This document shows positions 7,759 through 19,514 of a DNA stretch of 64,000 bases, piece after piece. The notes under the pieces were generated by a model. That model was not told the DNA's origin and made no database searches. It was given only the letters and a program-made list of their open reading frames with translations. The first letter of the stretch is position 1. Every line of letters starts with the position of its first letter. Where the stretch lies: NCBI GenBank assembly GCA_017514235.1, contig JAFWKK010000001.1, positions 10,770 to 74,769 of the forward strand, in the 5' to 3' direction. This stretch comes from Kiritimatiellia bacterium. Lineage in GTDB: Bacteria > Verrucomicrobiota > Kiritimatiellia > RFP12 > UBA1067. The position numbers and the translations under genes are program-made.

Positions 7759-9248
7759 GAGTGACACGGCGGAGTTTCGTCGGGGCAAGCGTGGCGTTTG
7801 CCGGTGGATGTTGCGGTAGATTGACGCAGCCACATGCGGATGTGTGTCCGTCCGCTCCACGCCTTAGGATCGGCATCCTCTCCGACATCCATGTCACTAG
7901 GCGCGAGAACGCCACGACGTTCGAGAAGGCGTTGCGATGGTTTTCTGAGCAAGGTGTTGACGGCGTTCTCATAACCGGAGACCTCGGCACGAAAGGCACG
8001 ATAGACGAAATCGAGGTTGTAGCCGAGACTTGGTACAATGTGTTTCCGAACGACAGGGACGCCAACGGTCGGCACGTGGAACGACTGTTTCTCCTCGGCA
8101 ATCACGATGTCGACGGGTTCGTCGGCAAGTCGTCGTGGCCGAAGGGGCAGATTCCTTCCCGTGAAGTTGCTGAAAAGACGTGCCTGGCGTTTCATCGCGA
8201 AAAGACATGGAAGAGGCTTTTCAACGAGGAATATCGCCAGATTGTCGTCAAGCAGGTGAAGGGGTACACTTTCGTGCTGAACAGCTGGCATTCCCGAGCG
8301 CTGAAGGAGAAGGACGGACTGGAGGATTTCTGGAAGGTTTTCGCTCCGACGATCAACCCGGACATGCCGTTCTTCTACTGCCAGCACCCTCACCCGAAGG
8401 ATACGTGCTCGGCCGGCTATCTGCTTGGCGGAGCCTTCTGGCACGGCGGCTGGGATGACGGAATCTCGACGAGGCTTCTTTCCGAGCACCGGAACTGCAT
8501 CGCGCTTTCGGGGCACTCACATTATCCGATAGACGACGAACGAGCCATCTGGCAGGGCGCTTTCACGAGCGTCAATTGTGGCTGCGCAAGAGGATTTGCG
8601 TTCACGTTCCCCGGGCGGGAGAACGGACATGCCGTATCGGACATGAAGGCTGGCACGACGTTCCAGATGCCGCCGATCGACATCAAGCGCATCAGGCAGG
8701 GAATGCTCATGGAGGTGTTCGGCGACAGCATCGTGTTCCACCGTCGCGAGTTTGTCTATGACCAGTCGCTTGGCCCGGACTGGGTGGTTCCGCTCGGGAA
8801 AGGCGCGGCGCGCCCGTATGAATTCGAACCGCGCCGCCGCGCATCGCGTCCGCCACAGTTCATCGAAGGGTCGTCCGTCGCAGTCGCGGAGCGGCCTGGC
8901 GGCAAGAACCGCAAAGGCGAGCCGTGCGAGCAGGTAGTCGTGACGGTCCCGTCAGCACGAGGAGGGCGCGTGTTCGACTACGAAGTGTCTGCCGAGGTGC
9001 GCATAGCGGACTTCACGCGCACGGTCGCGTCGAAGCGTGTATTTTCGCCAGACGCGTTTCTCGGTGCGGCCCAGGACGGCGGCAAGGTGACGTGCGTTTT
9101 CGCGAAGAGCGAGCTGCCGAAGGCACGTGACATCCGCTTCACGGTTCGCCCGTTCAACTGCTGGGGCAAGGGCGGCGAGCCAATAGCCTCGAAATGGCAG
9201 ATTCTGTCGTCGGACAAGAGGGGTCATCTGCCGGCGGCGTCTGTCTGA
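7755..9248 (+). CDS. Calcineurin-like metallophosphoesterase with twin-arginine signal and C-terminal beta-rich domain
   Basis: MRVTRRSFVG Tat motif; ATGA overlap with the upstream stop; LSDIH, ITGDL, LGNHD, QHPH, SGHSH. Confidence 0.82.
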   Translation: MRVTRRSFVGASVAFAGGCCGRLTQPHADVCPSAPRLRIGILSDIHVTRRENATTFEKALRWFSEQGVDGVLITGDLGTKGTIDEIEVVAETWYNVFPNDRDANGRHVERLFLLGNHDVDGFVGKSSWPKGQIPSREVAEKTCLAFHREKTWKRLFNEEYRQIVVKQVKGYTFVLNSWHSRALKEKDGLEDFWKVFAPTINPDMPFFYCQHPHPKDTCSAGYLLGGAFWHGGWDDGISTRLLSEHRNCIALSGHSHYPIDDERAIWQGAFTSVNCGCARGFAFTFPGRENGHAVSDMKAGTTFQMPPIDIKRIRQGMLMEVFGDSIVFHRREFVYDQSLGPDWVVPLGKGAARPYEFEPRRRASRPPQFIEGSSVAVAERPGGKNRKGEPCEQVVVTVPSARGGRVFDYEVSAEVRIADFTRTVASKRVFSPDAFLGAAQDGGKVTCVFAKSELPKARDIRFTVRPFNCWGKGGEPIASKWQILSSDKRGHLPAASV

Positions 9249-9399
9249 ACAAGATCAGGCTTGCGGTTTAGCCTGACGCCTCTGCGTGAAATAAGAATGT
9301 GCCAAAAGGTGACATGGCCGGAAACGGTTTATATGCGCTTGATCCTGCTGAGGCGGGCGCTGGCAGATTGCCCCCCCCGGTTCGGTTTTCGACACCCCC

Positions 9400-9428
9400 T
9401 TGCGCGGCAGAAGAATTTTTGATATACT
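9400..9428 (+). promoter_or_regulatory. Sigma70-type promoter of the S10 operon
   Basis: TTGCGC (9400-9405), 17-nt spacer, TATACT (9423-9428) with extended -10 TG. Confidence 0.8.
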
Positions 9429-9433
9429 TTACA

Positions 9434-9660
9434 CATTCTTCGCAAGAGAAGATGGTCGCGATACGGGCGAGTAGATCCCGTCGCGTCGTGGCCGCAGGGC
9501 AGCGCCCGCGGTCATGGTGTGATCGCGGGCAGCTTTTTTTACGGGGATGCTGCGAGGGGACACAACCGCGCGCGGAGCGCCTTCCGAAGGGCTTCCGGCG
9601 GCAACTCCGGGTGGAGCCCGCCGAGGGTGCGGTCGTCGAGTCGCAGGGTACGAGAAATAA
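9434..9660 (+). ncRNA. Putative structured cis-regulatory leader RNA of the S10 operon
   Basis: Several hand-identified stems between the promoter and rpsJ: GCAA-loop hairpin, 9454-9461/9486-9493, terminator, and a three-way junction at 9550-9646. Confidence 0.6.
9504..9540 (+). terminator. Intrinsic terminator (attenuator) within the S10 leader
   Basis: 11-bp stem GCCCGCGGTCA/TGATCGCGGGC with a 5-nt loop, then AGC and T7. Confidence 0.75.
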
Positions 9661-9672
9661 GGAAAGAACAAG

Positions 9673-9981
9673 ATGCAACAGCAGAGAGTGCGCATCCGCC
9701 TGCAGGCATACGACCATCGTGTGCTTGACCAGGCCGTCGGTGGGATCATCGACACGGCCAGGGGAACGGGTGCGCAGGTTGTGGGGCCGATTCCGCTGCC
9801 GACGCGCGTCGAGCGGTACACGGTCAACCGTTCGCCCAACGTCGACAAGAAGTCGATGGATCAGTTCGAGATGCGCACGCACAAGCGGCTTCTCGACATC
9901 GTGAACCCGACGGCGCAGACTATCGACGAGCTGAAGAAGCTCAACCTGCCGGCGGGCGTGGACATCACCATCAAGGTCTGA
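9673..9981 (+). CDS. rpsJ: 30S ribosomal protein S10
   Basis: [33 protein letters not shown]. Confidence 0.98.
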
Positions 9982-9993
9982 CGGGAGGGTGTC

Positions 9994-10662
9994 ATGGAAG
10001 GTTTGATCGGCAAAAAGATCGGCATGACCCAGGTGTTCGACGCTGAGGGCCGTCGCATGTGCGTGACGGTGCTCGAGGTCGGTCCCTGTCCGGTCGTGCA
10101 GCTTAAGACTCTCGAGCGCGACGGGTACGTTGCGGCTCAGCTCGGTTTCGGCGAGCAGAAGGCGAAGCGACTGACCAAGGCTGTCTGCGGCCACCAGGAG
10201 AAGACCGGCGGGCTGAAGGACAAGAAGGTGCGTGTGCTGCGCGAGTTCGCGCCTGACGCCGGCGAGGAGGTCAAGGTAGGCGACGTGCTTACGGTGGCTA
10301 ACTTCGAGGGCGTCAAGTTCGTCGACGTGACGGGCGTGACGAAGGGCAAGGGTTTTGCCGGCGTCTTGAAGCGCTACAACTTCGCTGGCGGCAACATGAC
10401 GCACGGCGGCCACTCTAAGCGCCGCACGGGCGGCCTTGCCGCGCGCGACCTGCCGGGTTGGATCGAGAAGGGCAAGAAGATGCCCGGCCACATGGGTGCG
10501 GTCAACCGCAAGGCTGTCAACCTCGAGGTGGTGCAGGTCCGTCCGGACGACAACGCCCTGCTGGTGAAGGGTTCGGTTCCCGGCGCCCGCAACGGCATCG
10601 TGTTCGTCCGCAAGTCCCTCAAGAACAACGTGATCGCCGCGAAGGCGAAGAAGGGGGCGTAA
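9994..10662 (+). CDS. rplC: 50S ribosomal protein L3
   Basis: [45 protein letters not shown]. Confidence 0.98.
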
Positions 10663-10668
10663 GTAGCC

Positions 10669-11262
10669 ATGAAGAAGATCGAGACAGTCTTCGACAAGTC
10701 TGCGCTGACGCTCGACAGGGGCGCGCAGGCGGTCAAGGACGTGGTGACGGCGATCCGCAATGCGCGGCGCGCGGGCACGGCGTCAACCAAGAGCAAGGGC
10801 GAGGTCGCGGGTTCGAACAAGAAGCCTTGGAAGCAGAAGGGCACGGGCAATGCCCGCGCCGGCTTCCGCCAGTCGCCGGTGTGGCGTGGCGGCGGCGTGG
10901 CGCACGGGCCGCATCCGCGCTCGTTCGCGCAGAAGGTGAACAAGAAAGTTGTGGCGCTGGCATTCGCGAGGGCGGTTTCCGACCGTCTTGCGGAGGGCGA
11001 TGTGATTGTCGTGGACAAGTTCGAGTTCGAGGCGCCGAAGACGCGGCTGATGGCGAAGTTCCTGAAGGAGCTAGGCGTCGACCGCACGGCGGTGATCGTG
11101 CAGCGCGACGTCGACGAGACGGTGTTCCTCACGATGCGCAACCTTCCGGGCATCGACTATTCCACGGCCGGATCGCTTGACGTGTACACGGTTCTCGCGA
11201 ACCGCAAGCTGGTCTGCGACAAGGACGGTTTCGACGCGCTCTTGGCGCGCATCACGAAGTGA
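10669..11262 (+). CDS. rplD: 50S ribosomal protein L4
   Basis: RAGTASTKSKGEV, KKPWKQKGTGNARAG, SPVWRGGGVAHGP. Confidence 0.97.
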   Translation: MKKIETVFDKSALTLDRGAQAVKDVVTAIRNARRAGTASTKSKGEVAGSNKKPWKQKGTGNARAGFRQSPVWRGGGVAHGPHPRSFAQKVNKKVVALAFARAVSDRLAEGDVIVVDKFEFEAPKTRLMAKFLKELGVDRTAVIVQRDVDETVFLTMRNLPGIDYSTAGSLDVYTVLANRKLVCDKDGFDALLARITK

Positions 11263-11275
11263 AGGAGCATGCGTC

Positions 11276-11578
11276 ATGACTAAGGCAGAACTCAAGGCCA
11301 AGACCGAGGGCGTCATTCTCGACGTGCTGATCACAGAGAAGGGCTCCCGCATGTCTGCGGAGGGCCGCTACCTGCTGGAGGTCGCGCCCGACGCCCGCAA
11401 GCCGCAGATCGCGGCGGCAGCGGAGAAGGCGTTCGGCGTGCATGTGCTTGCCGTGCGCACGGCGAACATGAAGGGCGGCCTTCGCTTCGTCCGCGGCACG
11501 CGTCGTCAGGTGCGCGAGACCACCTGGAAGAAGGCGATCGTCACCGTCAAGGAGGGCGAGCGCATCGAGCTCGCATAA
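11276..11578 (+). CDS. rplW: 50S ribosomal protein L23
   Basis: LITEK, KPQIAAAAEKAFGV, WKKAIVT; AAGGAG SD before ATG 11276; synteny. Confidence 0.93.
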   Translation: MTKAELKAKTEGVILDVLITEKGSRMSAEGRYLLEVAPDARKPQIAAAAEKAFGVHVLAVRTANMKGGLRFVRGTRRQVRETTWKKAIVTVKEGERIELA

Positions 11579-11596
11579 AGAGGGAGACCGACCAAT

Positions 11597-12421
11597 ATGG
11601 CACTTAAGACCTACAAGCCCCGTTCGAGCGGCATCCGCTTCCGCGAGTCCGCTACGTTCGAGGAGATCACCGAGAAGCGTCCGGTGAAATCGCTTACGAA
11701 GGCGCTCCGCAAGAAGGCGGGCCGCAACAACCAGGGGCGCATCACGGTCCGCCACAGGGGCGGCGGCGCGAAGCAGCGCATCAGGATAGTCGACTTCAAG
11801 CGCCGCAAGTTCGGCGTCGAGGCGACGGTGAAGGACATCGCGTACGATCCCACGCGCAGCGCGTACCTGGCGCTCGTGGAGTACGCAGACGGCGTGAAGA
11901 GCTACATTCTCGCTCCCGACGGCCTGAAGCGGGGCATGAAGGTGATGAGCGGCCCGAAGGCCGAGGCGACGCTGGGCAACTGCCTGCCGCTGTCTCAGAT
12001 TCCACTCGGGCTGGTGGTTCATGCGGTTGAGCTCGTGCCCGGGCAGGGAGCGAAGGTTTGCCGGTCGGCCGGCAACTCCTGCCAGGTGATGGCGCGTGAC
12101 GGTGGCCGCGTGACGCTCAAGATGCCGTCCGGCGAAATCCGCATATTTGACGGACGTTGCCTTGCTTGCGTTGGCTCCGTCGGCAACAAGGACTGGGGTT
12201 CGATCAAGCTTGGCACGGCCGGTCGCAAGCGCCACCTGGGCATTCGTCCGACTGTGCGCGGCGTCGCCATGAACCCTGTCGACCACCCGATGGGCGGCGG
12301 CGAGGGCCGCACGTCCGGCGGTTCGCACCCGTGTTCGCCGTGGGGCAAGCTCGCGAAGGGCGGCAAGACGCGCGCGAAGCGGAAGGCCTCGAACAAGGTG
12401 ATCGTCAAGAGGAGGAAATAA
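11597..12421 (+). CDS. rplB: 50S ribosomal protein L2
   Basis: GRNNQGRITVRHRGGG, RPTVRGVAMNPVDHPMGGGEG. Confidence 0.99.
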   Translation: MALKTYKPRSSGIRFRESATFEEITEKRPVKSLTKALRKKAGRNNQGRITVRHRGGGAKQRIRIVDFKRRKFGVEATVKDIAYDPTRSAYLALVEYADGVKSYILAPDGLKRGMKVMSGPKAEATLGNCLPLSQIPLGLVVHAVELVPGQGAKVCRSAGNSCQVMARDGGRVTLKMPSGEIRIFDGRCLACVGSVGNKDWGSIKLGTAGRKRHLGIRPTVRGVAMNPVDHPMGGGEGRTSGGSHPCSPWGKLAKGGKTRAKRKASNKVIVKRRK

Positions 12422-12424
12422 TCC

Positions 12425-12703
12425 ATGGCACGTTCTCTCAAGAAGGGCCCTTATGTCGAGGAAAGCCTCCTCCGCAGGGTCGAGAAGATGAAAGCGAGCG
12501 GCAAGAAGCAGCCGATCAAGACGTGGAGCCGCCGGTCGATGGTGATTCCTGACTTTGTCGGCCTCACGTTTGCGATCCATAACGGCCGGCAGCACATGCC
12601 GATCTTCATCACGGAAAACATGGTCGGCCACCGGCTCGGCGAGTTCGCCCCGACGCGCACGTTCAAGTCGCACGGCAACAGCGTGGCGAAGGCCGAGAAG
12701 TAA
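12425..12703 (+). CDS. rpsS: 30S ribosomal protein S19
   Basis: [30 protein letters not shown]. Confidence 0.99.
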
Positions 12704-12713
12704 GGAGTAGACA

Positions 12714-13073
12714 ATGGAAGTCATCGCCATTACCCGCAATGCGCGCATGTCGGCCTTCAAGGGCCGGCCGCTCTGCCGCGCGTGCCAGGGCCTCGCGGCC
12801 TCCGAGGCGCTGAAGGTCGTCGAGTTCTCGCCGAAGAAGGCGGCCGAAATCATCCGCAAGACGCTTAAGAGCGCCATGGCGAATGCCGCGAACAACAACG
12901 GCGTCGCCGACGCTGGTGCGCTTACCGTGAAGCTGTGTGTGCTCGACGAGTCGGTGCGGATGCGCCGCTACTGGCCGACGGCCCGCGGCTCCGCGCATCC
13001 GATCGCCCGCCGCATGTGCCACTGCAAGGTCGTTCTTACGGACGAGAAGAAGGTCAAGAAGGAGAAGAAATAA
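12714..13073 (+). CDS. rplV: 50S ribosomal protein L22
   Basis: ARMSAFK, KTLKSAMANA, PTARG; synteny. Confidence 0.95.
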   Translation: MEVIAITRNARMSAFKGRPLCRACQGLAASEALKVVEFSPKKAAEIIRKTLKSAMANAANNNGVADAGALTVKLCVLDESVRMRRYWPTARGSAHPIARRMCHCKVVLTDEKKVKKEKK

Positions 13074-13768
13074 TGGGACAGAAAGTAAATCCCGTCGGTT
13101 TCCGCGTTGGCGTCAACCACGCCTGGGGCAGCCGTTGGTTCGCGCCCAAGAAGTCCTTCGGCGCGTTCCTTGTGGAGGATCAGCGCATCCGCGACCTCTG
13201 CAAGAAGCGGCTTGTCGAGGCCGGCATCTCCCGGATCATGATCGAGCGTTACGCTAACCGCGTGCGCGTCACCCTCTTCAGCGCCCGTCCGGGCGTGATC
13301 ATCGGCCGCAAGGGCGGTGACGTCGAGGCGACGCGTGACGAGCTGTCAAAGATGACCGGCAAGGAGGTCTACCTTGAGGTCAAGGAGGTCCAGGGAGCCG
13401 ATGCAGACGCGCAGCTCGTGGCCGAGTCGATTGCGCTGCAGCTCGAGCGCCGCATCATGCTCAAGAGGGCGATGAAGCGCGCGATGAAGGTTGCGATGGA
13501 CATGGGTGTGGACGGCATCAAGATCCATGCCGGCGGCCGCATCAACGGCGCGGAGATCGCGCGCGTCGAATGGTCCCGCGAGGGCAAGGTGCCGCTTCAC
13601 ACGCTTCGCGCGAACATCGACTACGGTTTCGCGGAGGCCAACACCACGGCCGGCAAGATCGGTCTGAAGGTGTGGATATGCAAGAAGGAAGGGTTCCAGG
13701 CCCGTCCGCCCCGCGGCGATCGCCGCGGCGACCGGCGTGAGCGCGGGGACCGCAAGGAGGGTCGGTAA
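13073..13768 (+). CDS. rpsC: 30S ribosomal protein S3
   Basis: MGQKVNPVGFRVG, ARPGVIIGRKG, GKVPLHTLRANIDYG; TAATG coupling. Confidence 0.98.
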   Translation: MGQKVNPVGFRVGVNHAWGSRWFAPKKSFGAFLVEDQRIRDLCKKRLVEAGISRIMIERYANRVRVTLFSARPGVIIGRKGGDVEATRDELSKMTGKEVYLEVKEVQGADADAQLVAESIALQLERRIMLKRAMKRAMKVAMDMGVDGIKIHAGGRINGAEIARVEWSREGKVPLHTLRANIDYGFAEANTTAGKIGLKVWICKKEGFQARPPRGDRRGDRRERGDRKEGR

Positions 13769-13771
13769 GCC

Positions 13772-14194
13772 ATGCCTTTGATGCCCAAGAGAGTCAAGTA
13801 CCGCAAGGTCTCCAAGGGGAATCGCGCGGGATATGCAACGTCGGGCACGGAGCTCGCATACGGCGAGTTCGGCCTTAAGGCGCTGACGCGCGGTCTCCTG
13901 ACGGCCACGCAGATCGAGGCGTGCCGCGTCGCGATCAACCGTGAGATGAAGCGCAAGGGGAAGCTCTGGATACGCATCTTCCCCGACAAGCCCGTCACGC
14001 GCAAGCCGATAGAGGTGCGCATGGGCGGAGGAAAGGGCAACCCGGAGTTCTGGGCGGCCGTAATCCTCCCAGGGAAGGTCCTCTTCGAGGTCGGGGGCGT
14101 CAGCGAGGAGGTCGCCAAGGAGTGCCTCCGTCTGGCGGCGACCAAGATCGGAATCCACACGAAATTCATCACCCGCGCAGGAGTAAAGATCTGA
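13772..14194 (+). CDS. rplP: 50S ribosomal protein L16
   Basis: [33 protein letters not shown]. Confidence 0.98.
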
Positions 14195-14454
14195 TGAGCA
14201 CGGAAATCAGCAGCCGCGGTGCGCGCAAGGTGCGCAAGGGCGTGGTCGTATCGCGGATGGGCGCGAAGAGCGTCAAGGTCGCGGTCTCGTACCGCGAGCG
14301 TCACCCGATGTACGGCAAGGTCGTCACGCGCACTAAGAACTACCATGTGCACGACGAGGCCGACACGGCCAAGGTCGGGGACACGGTGACCATCATGGAA
14401 ACGCGTCCGATGAGCGCCACGAAGCGTTGGCGCATCGTCGCGGACGCGAAGTAA
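14194..14454 (+). CDS. rpsQ: 30S ribosomal protein S17
   Basis: GVVVSRMGAKSV, HPMYGK, HVHDE, GDTVTIMETRPMSATKRW; TGATG coupling to rplP. Confidence 0.97.
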   Translation: MSTEISSRGARKVRKGVVVSRMGAKSVKVAVSYRERHPMYGKVVTRTKNYHVHDEADTAKVGDTVTIMETRPMSATKRWRIVADAK

Positions 14455-14470
14455 GCAAGGAGAAGCCGAC

Positions 14471-14836
14471 ATGCTTCAGGAACTCTCCAATCTCGTAGTG
14501 GCGGATAACACTGGCGCCAAGCGTGCGATGTGTTTCCGTATTCTCAAGCAGCGCAAGGAGTACGCCCATCTCGGGGACGTGATCCGCGTTGCGATAAAGG
14601 AGGCTTCGCCGACCTCGTCCGTAAAGAAGGGCTCGGTCGCGACCGCCGTCATCATACGCACGGGCCAGCCGATCCGCAGGGAGGACGGCTCGATGGTCCA
14701 CTTCGACCAGAACGCGTGCGTCCTCGTCGACTCGAAGCTCAACCCGATCGGGACCCGCGTGTTCGGGCCGGTCGCCCGCGAGCTCCGCGAGAAGAACTAC
14801 ATGAAGATACTCTCGATGGCCCCGGAAGTGGTCTGA
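14471..14836 (+). CDS. rplN: 50S ribosomal protein L14
   Basis: VADNTGAK, FDQNACV, GTRVFGPVARELR, SMAPEVV. Confidence 0.98.
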   Translation: MLQELSNLVVADNTGAKRAMCFRILKQRKEYAHLGDVIRVAIKEASPTSSVKKGSVATAVIIRTGQPIRREDGSMVHFDQNACVLVDSKLNPIGTRVFGPVARELREKNYMKILSMAPEVV

Positions 14837-14850
14837 GAAGGAGCAACGAA

Positions 14851-15162
14851 ATGTCACTCGCAAGAATCAGGAAGAACGACACCGTGATCGTGACCTGCGG
14901 CAATGACGCGGGCAAGACCGGCACGGTATTGAGCGTGAACGCAAAGAAGGGCACGGCGATAGTGGGCGGCATAAACGTCCACAAGAAGGCGGTGCGCCGT
15001 ACCGAGAAGACCGCTGGCGGCCTCATTGAACGGGAGTTCCCGATCCGCATAAGCAAGCTCATGCCTTACGACGCCGAGAAGAAGGCGGGCACGCGCGTCA
15101 GGGTGGGCGACAAGGAGGGCAAGAAGGCCCGTCTCTCCGTCAAGAGCGGGAAGCCCCTCTAA
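14851..15162 (+). CDS. rplX: 50S ribosomal protein L24
   Basis: KOW motif IRKNDTVIVTCGNDAGKTGTV; AAGGAG SD; synteny. Confidence 0.96.
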   Translation: MSLARIRKNDTVIVTCGNDAGKTGTVLSVNAKKGTAIVGGINVHKKAVRRTEKTAGGLIEREFPIRISKLMPYDAEKKAGTRVRVGDKEGKKARLSVKSGKPL

Positions 15163-15180
15163 GGAAGGAACTAAACTGTC

Positions 15181-15714
15181 ATGGCAAGACTGAAAGACGA
15201 ATACGCGAACCGCATGGTGGCAGAGCTCGAGAAGAAGCTCGGCATCACCAACCGTATGCTCGTTCCGCGCCTCCAGAAGATCGTCATCAACATGGGCTTC
15301 GGCATCGTCTCCAAGGACGAGCAGAAGACGCTAGTGGACGACCTCGCTACCATCACCGGCCAGAAACCGATGCTTTGCCGCGCGAAGAAGTCGATCTCGA
15401 ACTTCAAGCTGCGCGAGGGCATGGTCATCGGCGCGAAGGTCACCCTGCGCGGCATGCGCATGTGGGAGTTCGCCGACCGCCTTATCTCGGCGGCGCTGCC
15501 CCGCATCCGCGACTTCCGCGGGGTTCCCAACCGCGGCTTCGACGGCGCCGGCAACTATACGCTCGGCATCAAGGAGCACACGATCTTCCCGGAGCTCGTG
15601 GATTCCGCAGTTCACTCCGGAATGGACGTCACGTTCGTGACCTCGTCCACCGACAACGCGGCCTGCAGGGAGCTTCTCGTCTCCATGGGCATGCCGTTCG
15701 CAGGAAGGAGCTAA
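15181..15714 (+). CDS. rplE: 50S ribosomal protein L5
   Basis: VPRLQKIVINMG, AKKSISNFKLREG, LPRIRDFRG, FDGAGNYTLG. Confidence 0.98.
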   Translation: MARLKDEYANRMVAELEKKLGITNRMLVPRLQKIVINMGFGIVSKDEQKTLVDDLATITGQKPMLCRAKKSISNFKLREGMVIGAKVTLRGMRMWEFADRLISAALPRIRDFRGVPNRGFDGAGNYTLGIKEHTIFPELVDSAVHSGMDVTFVTSSTDNAACRELLVSMGMPFAGRS

Positions 15715-15717
15715 GTC

Positions 15718-15903
15718 ATGGCCAAGAAGTGCCTCATCGAAAAGCAGAAGCGCACGCCGAAGTTCAAGGTCCGCGCCTACAACCGCTGCCAGCGCTGCGG
15801 GCGGCGTCACGCCTACCTCCGCAAGTTCGGCGTCTGCCGTCTCTGTTTCCGCGAGCTCGCTGTCGCCGGCCTCGTGCCCGGCGTGACAAAGGCATCGTGG
15901 TAA
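15718..15903 (+). CDS. rpsN: 30S ribosomal protein S14 type Z (zinc-binding, 61 aa)
   Basis: RCQRCGR...CRLCFRELA...PGVTKASW. Confidence 0.97.
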
Positions 15904-15928
15904 CGAAAGAAGAAAAGGAGTCCAGCAC

Positions 15929-16321
15929 ATGTCCATAGATCCCATTTCCGACATGCTCACGACGATCCGCAACGGTCTGAAGGCCCGCCTTTTCTCCGTG
16001 GAGACCCCGGCGAGCGGACTGAAGGGCGAAATCGCCCGCGTCATGAAGGAGGCCGGCTACATCGCCGACGCCGTCACGACGTCAGAGTTCCCGAAGCGGC
16101 TCGTGATCACGCTGAAGTACACGGAGCGGGCCATGCCCGCCATAACGGAGCTCAAGCGCATCTCAAAGCCCGGCCTGCGCCGGTTCGTCTCGGTTCCCGA
16201 GATACCGTCCGTCCTCGACGGAATGGGCCTTGCGATCCTCTCCACCTCGAAGGGCGTCATGTCCGGCACTGAGGCGAAGAAGGCCCGCATTGGCGGGGAG
16301 CTCATCTGCACCGTAGCTTAA
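15929..16321 (+). CDS. rpsH: 30S ribosomal protein S8
   Basis: DPISDMLTTIRN, RISKPGLR, ILSTSKGVM, GGELIC. Confidence 0.98.
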   Translation: MSIDPISDMLTTIRNGLKARLFSVETPASGLKGEIARVMKEAGYIADAVTTSEFPKRLVITLKYTERAMPAITELKRISKPGLRRFVSVPEIPSVLDGMGLAILSTSKGVMSGTEAKKARIGGELICTVA

Positions 16322-16340
16322 GTAAGAGGAGTCCAAGACA

Positions 16341-16877
16341 ATGTCTCGAATCGGCAAGGAACCCGTCACGATCGCGGAAGGCGTAACCGTCTCCGTCGAC
16401 GGCCAGAAGGTGACGGTGAAGGGGAAGCTCGGGGAGCTTTCCTATACGATGCATGAAGGCATCACGGCGAAAGCGGAAGACGGCCGTATCGTCGTCTCGT
16501 GCGCAGATGACGCAACGCTCGGCAACTTCCACGGCCTCGCCCGCGCACTGATTCACAACATGGTGGTCGGCGTGTCTGCGGGCTACAAGAAGCAGCTATC
16601 GATCGAAGGAACAGGCTTCAAGGCCGTGCTCAAGGGCAAGGAGCTTGCGCTCTCCCTGGGCTTTGCCTCGCCTAAGATATTTGCGGTGCCGGACGGCATC
16701 ACATGCACCGTCGAGAACGACGGCCTCCAGGTGACGCTGACCGGCGTCGACAAGGCGCTCGTCGGCGAGTCTGCGGCGCGCATCCGCGCGTACTACCCGG
16801 CCGAACCCTACAAGGGCAAGGGCATCAAGTACGTCGGCGAGCACATCCGCCGCAAACAAGGAAAGAAGGTGGCCTAA
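16341..16877 (+). CDS. rplF: 50S ribosomal protein L6
   Basis: MSRIGKEP, GLARALIHNMVVGVS, EPYKGKGIKY. Confidence 0.98.
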   Translation: MSRIGKEPVTIAEGVTVSVDGQKVTVKGKLGELSYTMHEGITAKAEDGRIVVSCADDATLGNFHGLARALIHNMVVGVSAGYKKQLSIEGTGFKAVLKGKELALSLGFASPKIFAVPDGITCTVENDGLQVTLTGVDKALVGESAARIRAYYPAEPYKGKGIKYVGEHIRRKQGKKVA

Positions 16878-17242
16878 TGAGCTTCAACCGCAAGGTACAG
16901 CGCCAGAAGCGGCATCTCCGCCTGCGTCAGCGCATCGTCGGCACGGCAGCGCGTCCACGCCTGTCGATCTGCATCACGAACAAGCACATGTACGTGCAGT
17001 TCATCGACGACGATGCCGGTCGCACTCTCGCTCAGGCGAACAGCCTGAAGGACGAGCACGCCAACCTCGCCACAGCCAAGGCGCTCGGCGCCGCGGCGGC
17101 CGAGGCCGCGAAGTCCGCAGGCATTTCGACCGTTGTCGTCGACCGCGGCGGCAACAAGTATACGGGCCGCGTCGCGGCAATCGTCGAGGCCGTCGTGGAG
17201 GCGGGCCTCTCCATCCGCACCAAGAAAGAGGAGAATCGGTAA
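16877..17242 (+). CDS. rplR: 50S ribosomal protein L18
   Basis: RHLRLR, RPRLS, HMYVQFIDD, VVDRGGNKYTGRV; TAATG coupling. Confidence 0.97.
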   Translation: MSFNRKVQRQKRHLRLRQRIVGTAARPRLSICITNKHMYVQFIDDDAGRTLAQANSLKDEHANLATAKALGAAAAEAAKSAGISTVVVDRGGNKYTGRVAAIVEAVVEAGLSIRTKKEENR

Positions 17243-17244
17243 CA

Positions 17245-17739
17245 ATGGCTTTCAATCGCGACAAGCGTTCCGACGCGGGTGCCGAGGACAACCTCGACGA
17301 GCATACCGTGTTCATCAACAGGTGCGCCAAGACCGTCAAGGGCGGCCGCCGCATGAGCTTCTCCGCCGTCATCGTGGTCGGTGACAAGGCCGGAAAGGTC
17401 GGCGTGGGTTTCGGCAAGGCCAACGAGGTCGCCGACGCAATCCGCAAAGGCGGCGAGGCTGCCCGCAAGGACATGCGCACGGTCACGTTGCGTGGCAAGA
17501 CCATCCCGCACGACGTCGAGGGTGTCTGTGACGGCGGCCGGGTGATTCTCAAGCCCGCGCCGGACGGCACGGGCCTCATCGTCGGCGGCGGCATGCGCCC
17601 CGTTCTCGAGGCCGTCGGCATACGTGACGCTGTCGGCAAGTCGCTCGGATCCAAGAACCGTCTCAACGTGGTCAAGGCCACTATGAACGCGCTCATGAAG
17701 CTCCGCAGCGCCGAGGAGATCGCGGCGATCAGGGCGTAA
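17245..17739 (+). CDS. rpsE: 30S ribosomal protein S5
   Basis: INRCAKTVKGGRRMSFSA, GFGKANEV, PAPDGTGLIVGG, KSLGSKN. Confidence 0.98.
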   Translation: MAFNRDKRSDAGAEDNLDEHTVFINRCAKTVKGGRRMSFSAVIVVGDKAGKVGVGFGKANEVADAIRKGGEAARKDMRTVTLRGKTIPHDVEGVCDGGRVILKPAPDGTGLIVGGGMRPVLEAVGIRDAVGKSLGSKNRLNVVKATMNALMKLRSAEEIAAIRA

Positions 17740-17768
17740 CGGCGAAAGCCTCGAAAGGAGAACTTGAA

Positions 17769-18206
17769 ATGGAACTCAGCAATCTGACAAACACGCCGGG
17801 AGCACGCAGCCGCCGCAAGCGCGTCGGCCGCGGTTGCGGTTCGGGCATGGGCAAGACCTCCACCCGCGGTCACAAGGGTCAGGCCGCGCGCAAGGGCCAC
17901 AAGCATAAGCTTCAGTTTGAAGGCGGCCAGATGCCGCTCGTCCGCAGGCTGCCGAAGCGCGGTTTCAACAATGCCGCTTTCGCCGCCAAGGCGTTCGGCG
18001 TCAACCTTGCAGAACTTGAGAAGCGGTTCGAAGCCGGGGCCGAAATCACCCTCGCTACTCTTGCGAAGGCCGGCCTTACGGACAACAAGCGCCCGAAGGT
18101 CAAGATACTCGGCACCGGCGAACTGACAAAGAAGTTCACAGTGAAGGTTCCTTGCTCGGCTTCCGCCAAGGCGAAGATCGAGAAGGCCGGCGGCACCGTC
18201 GCCTGA
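17769..18206 (+). CDS. rplO: 50S ribosomal protein L15
   Basis: KRVGRGCGSGMGKTSTRGHKGQ, FEGGQMPLVRRLPKRGF, KIEKAGG. Confidence 0.98.
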   Translation: MELSNLTNTPGARSRRKRVGRGCGSGMGKTSTRGHKGQAARKGHKHKLQFEGGQMPLVRRLPKRGFNNAAFAAKAFGVNLAELEKRFEAGAEITLATLAKAGLTDNKRPKVKILGTGELTKKFTVKVPCSASAKAKIEKAGGTVA

Positions 18207-18305: not shown

Positions 18306-19514
18306 TTGAGGACCTGCGCTTCTAACAACTGCAATGCCTTTACGGCGTCATGCCTCTTGGCGGCGGCGTTGGCGGCGTGTCTGTGCCGCGCCGATCAACC
18401 AGCTGGCGTCAAGGCTGTCCCCATGCGGGACTGCCCGATCGGTGTGTTTGACTCCGGAATAGGCGGGCTCTCCGTGCTTGAACAGATTCTTGCACTAGAC
18501 GCGTTCGACAACGGCACCGGCGCTCCTGGCACGGACGGACGGCCCGACTTCGCGGGAGAGGAGTTCGTCTACTTCGGAGACCAGGCGAACATGCCGTACG
18601 GACGCTATGACGCGGCGGGCAAGGCCGACCTTCTGCGCGAACTGGTCAGGCGAGACGCGCGCTTCCTCCTAGGCAGCGACGGGCATCGTCCGGCAAAGGT
18701 CATAGTCATTGCATGCAACACTGCCACGGCCTATGGTCTTGAAGCCGTCCGTGCCATGCCTCGGTCGCGCGGCGAAAAGGTCATCGGCGTCGTCAATGCA
18801 GGGGTTGAGGCCGCACTTGACGCAATTTCGTCGGCGACAGGTGCCTGCGCCGTCGCGGTCATGGCCACGCCGGCGACGATTTCATCCGGCGTGTACGAGC
18901 GTACGCTAGCCGAGACGGCCCGCGTCCGCGCGCTGTCGTTCCCAGTGTTTGTCGCCAGCCGCGGCGGCATCGGCCTTGCGGAGGCGGTTGAGAACGCCGA
19001 ACCGGGACGTTTCCTGTGCGCACGGACGAATGTGGTGGCCCTCGTCACGGACTATCGGGCGCACGGCGGCAAGGCGCCGATACGCGCGTTCATCCTCGGG
19101 TGCACTCACTATCCTTTCGTTCTGGAAGCCATACGCTCCGCCCTCGACAGTCTTCGTGAGAATCCGGAGTATGCGTCGCTCCTGCCGCGCGACATTGTTT
19201 TCGTAGATCCGGCGGTCTACACGGCCATGGCGTGCTACAAGGCCCTGCGTGAAGATGGGCTTCTCAGGACGTCAGGCGCGGAGAGGCCCCGTCCGCGCGT
19301 TGAAGCGTTCGTGTCGATCGGACGCGACGGACCGCTTGATGATTCCGTCAAGTACGGGCGCAGCGTGTCGGACGCGGACTACGGCACGAAAATTGTGCCG
19401 TTGGCTTGCGGTTCGCTGACGGATGCAACGGCGGAAAGCGTGGCGGCGTCCTTCCCTCTTTCTGCTGCCGCGCTCGGCATCTCCCCGACACATTCCTGCG
19501 ACAAGGACAAGTGA
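18306..19514 (+). CDS. Glutamate racemase (MurI)-family protein with signal-peptide-like N-terminus and insertions
   Basis: PIGVFDSGIGGLSVL, YFGDQANMPYG, VIACNTATA and ILGCTHYP (both catalytic Cys); GGGAG SD 7 nt before TTG 18306. Confidence 0.8.
   Translation: MRTCASNNCNAFTASCLLAAALAACLCRADQPAGVKAVPMRDCPIGVFDSGIGGLSVLEQILALDAFDNGTGAPGTDGRPDFAGEEFVYFGDQANMPYGRYDAAGKADLLRELVRRDARFLLGSDGHRPAKVIVIACNTATAYGLEAVRAMPRSRGEKVIGVVNAGVEAALDAISSATGACAVAVMATPATISSGVYERTLAETARVRALSFPVFVASRGGIGLAEAVENAEPGRFLCARTNVVALVTDYRAHGGKAPIRAFILGCTHYPFVLEAIRSALDSLRENPEYASLLPRDIVFVDPAVYTAMACYKALREDGLLRTSGAERPRPRVEAFVSIGRDGPLDDSVKYGRSVSDADYGTKIVPLACGSLTDATAESVAASFPLSAAALGISPTHSCDKDK

Follow-up and report, generated by a model that had tools for sequence, protein, structure and literature searches.

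The stretch of DNA analyzed here (the window, 64,000 nt from a Kiritimatiellia genome that is 92% complete, in 82 contigs) raises the question of whether a large block of ribosomal protein genes is switched by the RNA at its own 5′ end, and to which signal such an RNA would respond. The rpsJ gene, encoding S10 (9673..9981, + strand; Pfam Ribosomal_S10, E 2.4e-35), is the first gene of the operon and is separated by a gap of 424 nt from a metallophosphoesterase-like ORF that ends at 9248 (ORF list and Pfam). The initial annotation had placed in this gap an attenuator with three mutually exclusive stems controlling 19 ribosomal protein genes. The size of the operon was borne out, as Pfam recognized 19 such genes from rpsJ to rplO (9673-18206). 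In this block, the S10 and spc clusters are fused, and it includes rpsH, encoding S8 (15929..16321, + strand; Pfam Ribosomal_S8, E 7.8e-42). Among the ORFs submitted from the S10-spc block, L29 and L30 were not detected, and secY does not follow rplO, the next gene (18306-19511) being Asp/Glu racemase-like. The closest relatives of the source genome are recorded as uncultured Kiritimatiellia, some of them filed under Verrucomicrobia or Lentisphaerae, and originate from ruminant, horse, and other gut samples.

The leader contained in the gap is preceded by a predicted promoter at 9400..9428 (+ strand), composed of the −35 element TTGCGC (9400-9405) and the extended −10 element TGATATACT (9420-9428), from which the transcript is predicted to start at approximately 9434-9436. 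The pattern TTGNNN-N14-16-TGNTANNNT was found in 108 of 113 relatives, 27-35 nt upstream of the conserved core of the leader. With its spacing fixed in this manner, the promoter, which had been called clear from a single sequence, is judged by conservation to be real. In one relative, a tRNA gene (L072:394-473, − strand; Rfam tRNA, 53.7 bits) is situated just upstream of the leader promoter on the opposite strand.

Four helices, all on the + strand, make up the part of the leader that ends with the terminator. The first, P0 (9437..9452), is a 5′-terminal hairpin of 5 bp (−5.0 kcal/mol) that is supported by covariation and probably acts as a stabilizer of the 5′ end. It is followed by P1 (9454..9493; −18.5 kcal/mol, also supported by covariation), a long and irregular hairpin regarded here as the sensor and anti-antiterminator, whose outer helix pairs 9454-9461 with 9486-9493. 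The core of P1 contains the bulged U9462 and A9463, the pairs C9464-G9485 and G9465-C9484, and a bulged G9483, and it leads into an inner helix formed by 9466-9471 and 9477-9482 (G9466-C9482 to G9471-C9477). The antiterminator (9487..9516; −21.2 kcal/mol) combines 9487-9495/9508-9516 with 9497-9500/9504-9507, leaves A9496 bulged, and occupies the entire 5′ arm of the terminator. Finally, the intrinsic terminator (9504..9540; −21.1 kcal/mol alone) is composed of the stem 9504-9515/9519-9530 and the U7 tract at 9534-9540; the terminator scan reported the same stem (9504-9530) with 12 pairs, 8 of them G-C, and a loop of 3, followed by AGCTTTTTTT. The predicted fold of 9434-9545 was more stable than all of 200 dinucleotide shuffles (200/200, z −4.24). 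Its minimum-energy form pairs the A/G-rich 5′ end (AAGAGAAG) with the U-tract and was not accepted as the biological fold, since the same bases belong to the covarying P0 hairpin.

These assignments agree with the initial annotation in most respects and depart from it in two. The terminator was recovered by the scan, with its U-tract and with covariation in relatives, and the proposed pairing of 9487-9500 with 9504-9516 as antiterminator and of 9454-9461 with 9486-9493 as anti-antiterminator also held (90.5% and 95.7% paired, respectively, in the genus of the window, g1). On the other hand, the hairpin ACGGG/CCCGT that the anti-antiterminator had been thought to enclose gave way to a shifted register (C9464-G9485 and G9465-C9484, with G9483 bulged), which is the one that covaries across genera. 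The inner registers ACGGG/CCCGT and GCGA/UCGC, which had been tried for this part of P1, fit g1, yet A9461/U9481 is broken in 15 of its 77 leaders. The end of the element, formerly placed at 9540, also had to be moved, since P0 (9437-9452) and a second domain (9548-9649) belong to the same leader, which is approximately 240 nt long, compared to the 107 nt first assigned.

Covariation in the rpsJ upstream regions of relatives had been suggested as a means of checking the switch, and it was found in an alignment of 114 homologous leaders (112 distinct) from seven genera, with a g1 subset of 77 leaders (75 distinct). For P1 and the terminator taken together, 85.3% of the cells were paired in the 114 leaders, compared to 77.9% in shuffled alignments and 32-49% with a slid partner; 23 of 28 pairs were changed on both sides, and none of 500 shuffles reached any of these measures. 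The P1 core and inner helix were 92.7% paired among the 112 distinct sequences, with changes on both sides in 5 of 8 pairs. Within g1, the eight pairs of the P1 outer helix included four with changes on both sides; this pair count was equalled by 29 of 500 shuffles, while the number of cells changed on both sides was equalled by none (0/500). Outside g1, the outer helix was weak, with approximately five pairs and a bulge. The antiterminator of g1 comprised 13 pairs, seven of them with changes on both sides, and its paired fraction compares with 25-41% for slid partners. The g1 terminator was 90.6% paired over 12 pairs, with changes on both sides in eight, and in P0 of g1 all five pairs had changed on both sides, with 87.8% of cells paired. 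Related sequences can outscore shuffles without any structure being present, which limits what such tests convey. In this case, an artefact of kinship is unlikely, given the outcome with slid partners and the wide variety of pair types.

The exclusivity of the helices can be followed at individual positions. Position 9506 covaries with 9498 in the antiterminator (AU 46, GC 11, GU 10) and with 9528 in the terminator (UA 48, CG 18, UG 8). Similarly, 9514 covaries with 9489 in the antiterminator (UA 47, UG 14, CG 12) and with 9520 in the terminator (AU 23, GC 18). Since each of these two positions covaries with two partners, they constitute direct comparative evidence for alternative folds. The leader displays the hallmark of an attenuator, namely three mutually exclusive 5′-leader helices, the last of which is an intrinsic terminator with a U-tract, and each of the three stems originally proposed is kept by compensatory change in relatives. 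On these comparative grounds, the four helices, their mutual exclusivity, the promoter, and a nearly invariant S8-like core within P1 can be regarded as established.

Folding predictions indicated which of the alternative structures is preferred while the RNA is being made. Before the 3′ arm of the terminator has been transcribed, the nascent RNA contains the antiterminator in its minimum-energy fold in 76 of the 77 g1 leaders, with a mean advantage of 6.3 kcal/mol for the antiterminator state in g1, and in 35 of the 37 leaders from other genera. Once the full terminator has been made, the terminated fold of the window is the more stable one (−45.7 vs. −32.7 kcal/mol), and the full-length minimum-energy fold contains the terminator in 53 of the 77 g1 leaders. 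Because the antiterminator is preferred at the decision point, the predicted unassisted outcome is read-through, and a factor would be needed for termination; since the terminated fold is the more stable once complete, energies do not translate into a basal level of read-through. According to this folding model, the switch is kinetic, and P1 must be held shut to yield termination.

A promoter downstream of the terminator would change this picture, and the initial annotation had pointed out that a start site after 9540 would turn the element into a stand-alone RNA. In the stretch from the terminator to rpsJ, the extended −10 element was found in none of the 114 leaders, and its loose form in only one (1/114). 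In view of this result, rpsJ must be transcribed through the terminator. This bears on the possibility that the locus produces a stand-alone sRNA of approximately 105 nt, such as a decoy for S8, or that the terminator is constitutive and leaky, with rpsJ left unregulated through the leader. A promoter and a strong terminator do bracket a stable and conserved RNA, as such a reading would predict; however, with no promoter motif from the terminator to rpsJ in the 114 leaders, rpsJ depends on read-through, and a covarying antiterminator would have no purpose ahead of a constitutive terminator. Additionally, contigs from four metatranscriptome runs carry parts of the window (coding parts only in X1 and X2). 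One RNA-library contig from a close relative (12 differences, 6 gaps), which holds no information on transcript ends or levels, spans 9480-9732 and crosses the terminator into rpsJ; another contig covers 9536-9686. These contigs are compatible, if weakly, with read-through transcripts, and we regard an sRNA or an unregulated terminator as very improbable. Ribosome-mediated attenuation through a leader peptide has even less in its favor. In the window, a frame beginning with the ATG at 9452 runs across the leader, as this mechanism would require, but of the 77 g1 rows only those of the window and its nearest relative have the ATG, the others having AGG or AAG, and no conserved short ORF over the alternative helices was seen in the 77-row g1 alignment; the chance that the leader works in this manner is negligible. 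We are highly confident that the leader is a conditional terminator of some kind.

If termination requires a factor, the core of P1 suggests which one. The S8 binding site in helix 21 of 16S rRNA is described as a helix interrupted by seven conserved nucleotides, with the triple (G597-C643)-U641, an invariant A642, a contact to A640, and a further triple that takes the form A595-(A596-U644) in E. coli and G595-(C596-G644) in T. thermophilus (PMC4176348). The same source reports that the strands are permuted in the S8 site of the E. coli spc mRNA, where the 644-like base is located 5′ of the 595/596-like bases. In our leader, 9460-9466/9482-9487 mimics 16S positions 639-645/594-599 when compared with the features given in that source: G9485-C9464 with U9462 corresponds to (G597-C643)-U641, A9463 to the invariant A642, A9461 to A640, and G9483 with C9484-G9465 to G595-(C596-G644), that is, the T. 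thermophilus form, so that all seven internal-loop positions of the S8 site are matched together with the flanking pairs (PMC4176348). In the covarying register, the pairs G9460-C9487 and A9461-U9486 precede the bulge of U9462 and A9463. The core GAUACGG/YGCGUC was present in 104 of the 114 leaders; the deviations consisted of U to A at the 641 equivalent (4), G to A at the 595 equivalent (7), and one row that is probably misaligned. G9460, A9461, G9465, G9466, C9484, G9485, U9486, and C9487 were invariant in the 114 leaders, and U9462, A9463, C9464, and G9483 are also among the most conserved letters of the leader.

The S8-like core is connected to the switch through C9487, the equivalent of C599, which is used by the antiterminator in 68 of the 77 g1 leaders and in 35 of the 37 others. 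As the antiterminator takes the C599 equivalent, S8 binding and antitermination would be mutually exclusive in every genus, including those with short outer helices. Given that the P1 core mimics the S8 site and that rpsH lies in the operon, S8 is the likely effector and the putative binder of the P1 core.

The strength of this match was considered in several ways. When three flanking pairs are required on either side, the S8-like motif is found once in the window, in P1, with no second S8-like site, and approximately once per 128 kb of shuffled window sequence; at that frequency, the S8 match alone is only moderately rare. For the S8 site alone, the chance is approximately 1e-3 per given 100-nt stretch before correction for other candidate proteins. 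The S8 site had been chosen for comparison beforehand, and the match did not emerge from a blind screen of all ribosomal protein sites. A loose pattern (GATACGG-N8-38-GCGTC) searched in the genome of the window gave 45 matches compared to 33 for a reversed control and was discarded as uninformative.

Neither 16S nor 23S genes were present in this genome, and the rRNA of relatives was used for comparison. In four g1 genomes (L230-L233), 16S helix 21 reads GUGUC / GAGACUG, at positions whose numbering depends on our own alignment to the E. coli 16S sequence. The leader core differs from this own-genus site at 3 of 12 positions, with C-G instead of U.U at 596/644 and U instead of G at 641, from which it follows that the leader copies the canonical S8 site, not the organism's own. 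The 16S S8 site of the family itself appears unusual, with U at both 596 and 644 and with G (g1) or A (g17, L229) at 641, in the numbering of our own alignment.

The three-helix attenuator could also respond to a different effector, such as L4, S10, L3, or a non-ribosomal RNA-binding protein, and the likeness to the S8 site would then be coincidental. The S10 leader of E. coli is under the control of L4 (PMC3616713), chance occurrences of the S8-like motif are not very rare, and the difference between the leader core and the own-genus 16S site points in the same direction. In contrast, the internal-loop positions and flanking pairs of the S8 site are matched without exception and are the most conserved letters of the leader, and a comparison of the leader with the 23S and 16S rRNA of a family member revealed no leader motif, only shared 9-10-mers at chance level. 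Overall, the mimicry favors S8 over L4 as the protein effector, and we consider another effector for the same switch rather unlikely.

The distribution of the leader was determined from rpsJ upstream regions of 21 loci of genus g1, 20 from other genera of the family, 8 from other families of the order, and a further 80 loci from g1, g37, and g40. After 11 of these had been set aside (the 8 of other families, L050, L051, and one fragment of 33 nt), the conserved leader core was present in all of the remaining 118 regions (118/118). The leader-bearing genera are g1, g37, g40, g33, g34, g36, and g18, all from one family of uncultured gut and rumen Kiritimatiellia. The leader is absent from genera g17 and g23 and from the other families, in which fusA (EFG_C, EFG_IV) stops 7-10 nt upstream of rpsJ; this arrangement, with fusA adjoining rpsJ, was seen at L022-L030, L050, and L051. 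In the leader-bearing subclade, rpsJ is separated from fusA and sits behind unrelated genes. Because the leader occurs only in the subclade in which rpsJ is detached from fusA, its origin is dated to that rearrangement, and the leader and promoter seem to have arisen together with it.

A covariance model built on the 114 leaders gave the same distribution. Among 151 genomes of the order, matches of at least 49.9 bits were obtained in 25 of 26 g1, 8 of 8 g37, 2 of 2 g40, 1 of 1 g33, and 1 of 1 g34 genomes and in none outside the leader subclade. Among 151 sampled genomes of the phylum, four had such a match, all of them from the same family. The genome of the window contains one copy, and all strong matches sit before rpsJ, with one copy per genome. 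One g1 genome (G137) bears a second, g37-like copy (L145, G137:C50:5700-5830; 60.7 bits) at the end of a 5.8-kb contig, which is probably a mis-binned contig from another genus. Matches of 21-35 bits in other families and phyla were not accepted as homologues after inspection of four alignments: three contained little beyond the terminator half, with P1 deleted in two and six outer pairs in the third, while the fourth was the g37-like copy on the short G137 contig. In one species (L013, G011), approximately 50 nt are inserted immediately 3′ of the leader terminator, before the second domain.

The initial annotation had not recognized this RNA as any known ribosomal leader, and the same outcome was obtained with Rfam, in which no family reached its gathering score across the whole window and no match was found at E up to 10 in 9249-9720 or at E up to 1 in the leaders of nine relatives. 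Among the full-text matches listed, there was no publication on an rpsJ leader in the Kiritimatiellia lineage and none on S8-dependent transcription attenuation. With its stems conserved, no later promoter, no Rfam match, restriction to one subclade, and a 19-gene operon behind it, the element stands as the lineage-specific ribosomal leader or attenuator that had been proposed, while the accompanying description as riboswitch-like is disfavored by the S8-site mimic. The rpsJ leader is a new RNA family and a variant of known ribosomal protein attenuators.

Downstream of the terminator, consensus folding of 113 leaders from seven genera revealed a multi-helix junction, domain 2 (9548..9649, + strand), with 25 consensus pairs, 22 of which have compensatory changes. 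It is closed by a long-range stem (CUG.../...CAG) and further contains another stem of long range as well as two to three hairpins, and its conserved unpaired stretches include GACAC.CAA, GGCAAC, and UCGUCGA. Domain 2 ends approximately 10 nt upstream of the Shine-Dalgarno-like AAGGAAAG (9659..9666, + strand, assigned from sequence). In the predicted fold of 9434-9680, the last 31 nt are unpaired, leaving the ribosome-binding site and the start codon free; in some species, an extra hairpin is located between domain 2 and the ribosome-binding site. No Rfam match to domain 2 was found in the gap (9249-9720) or in the leaders of nine relatives, and no rRNA likeness was found in the 16S/23S of a family member.

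A highly conserved core followed by a classical expression platform, together with a conserved multi-helix junction of typical aptamer size, might suggest a small-molecule riboswitch in which P1, alone or with domain 2, is an aptamer that binds some metabolite related to growth. The aptamers of riboswitches are usually found ahead of several classes of genes; however, this leader occurs in a single copy per genome and before rpsJ only, and was not found ahead of several genes or units for one metabolite. Furthermore, domain 2 lies after the terminator and cannot inform termination, and P1, a simple helix with bulges, corresponds to a known protein site (PMC4176348). The mimicry of the S8 site favors the protein S8 here as well, and a riboswitch is quite improbable.

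As domain 2 is downstream of the terminator and has no say in the termination decision, a tentative extension of the S8 reading is that the leader is a two-sensor device, in which the S8-mimic hairpin gates the terminator and domain 2 independently senses a second ligand. This ligand could be another ribosomal protein of the operon or a small growth-related molecule, and the effect of domain 2, exerted downstream of the terminator, would be on translation, mRNA decay, or elongation. We regard this extension as possible though doubtful; if true, two signals would be integrated at a ribosomal operon of 19 genes by a class of RNA not described before.

Feedback on ribosomal protein operons is described mostly from work on E. 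coli and B. subtilis, and the majority of the E. coli leaders have a narrow distribution (PMC3616713). Among the known systems, the closest in regulatory logic is the B. subtilis rplJL leader, in which L10(L12)4 stabilizes an anti-antiterminator and promotes termination (PMC4538822). Like our leader, it arranges an anti-antiterminator, an antiterminator, and an intrinsic terminator in the 5′ leader of a ribosomal protein operon (PMC4538822). The operon, protein, and RNA are different, the proposed effector here being S8, and here a structured domain follows the terminator. In the B. subtilis infC-rpmI-rplT operon, L20 binds a conserved leader domain that mimics rRNA and provokes termination in the leader (PMC1865079), so the combination of an rRNA-site mimic for a ribosomal protein (in our case presumably S8) with a leader terminator is shared (PMC1865079), whereas the protein, operon, and RNA fold are not. 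Rfam models gave no indication of homology to the described rplJL- or infC-type leaders.

S8 itself exerts feedback on its own operon in E. coli through the spc operator, which is located inside the operon, overlaps the rplE start codon, blocks translation, and is reported to be narrowly distributed, in Gammaproteobacteria (PMC3616713). In both that operator and P1, the S8 site of 16S helix 21 is copied in mRNA, with a conserved loop and permuted strands (PMC3616713, PMC4176348), and the internal loop of the S8 site (595-597/641-644) is found in the P1 core. In contrast to the spc operator, the site described here (9454-9493) does not overlap the rplE start; it heads the fused S10-spc operon from approximately 190 nt upstream of rpsJ, takes the G595-(C596-G644) form, and is joined to a switch between terminator and antiterminator. 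The S10 leader of E. coli likewise is an rpsJ 5′ leader with a leader terminator, at which transcription ends prematurely in response to L4 (PMC3616713), and differs from ours in that the anti-antiterminator/antiterminator pair and the S8-like core are found here. No match to it was obtained with Rfam 15, as far as that release includes the family, and instead of a last hairpin overlapping the S10 start, the fold has an unpaired start codon. Other leaders at this position are the S10 leader motif in Firmicutes (PMC7247131) and the rpsJ motif in Peptostreptococcaceae (PMC11109978); word searches gave no mention of Verrucomicrobia or Lentisphaerae in either source, and none of Kiritimatiellia in PMC11109978.

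Taken together, these results lead us to propose that the leader is an S8-responsive autogenous transcription attenuator of the fused S10-spc operon from rpsJ to rplO, a model to which we assign a probability of roughly 0.6. Transcription would start at approximately 9434-9436, and P1, whose internal loop would be a copy of the S8 binding site of 16S helix 21, would be the first part of the nascent leader to fold. As long as newly made 16S rRNA consumes S8 and little of it is free, 9504-9516 would invade P1 and form the antiterminator with 9487-9500, which would block the terminator and allow RNA polymerase to read on into rpsJ. Excess S8 would bind the P1 core and lock the outer helix as anti-antiterminator, so that 9487-9495 would stay sequestered. 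With P1 locked, the terminator (9504-9530 and U7) would form, and transcription would stop before all of the ribosomal protein genes, including rpsH. Both the direction and the strength of the S8 effect are what we infer within this model.

For this uncultured gut and rumen lineage, the finding means that a single leader heads the whole S10-spc operon and joins a mimic of the S8 site to attenuation logic of the rplJL type. If S8 is confirmed as the effector, one and the same mode of protein-RNA recognition would have been put to use independently in another mechanism and at another position, and the leader would offer a clear natural case of an anti-antiterminator locked by a protein, with abundant covariation. 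It would also support S8 as a common regulator of ribosomal protein operons well outside Gammaproteobacteria.
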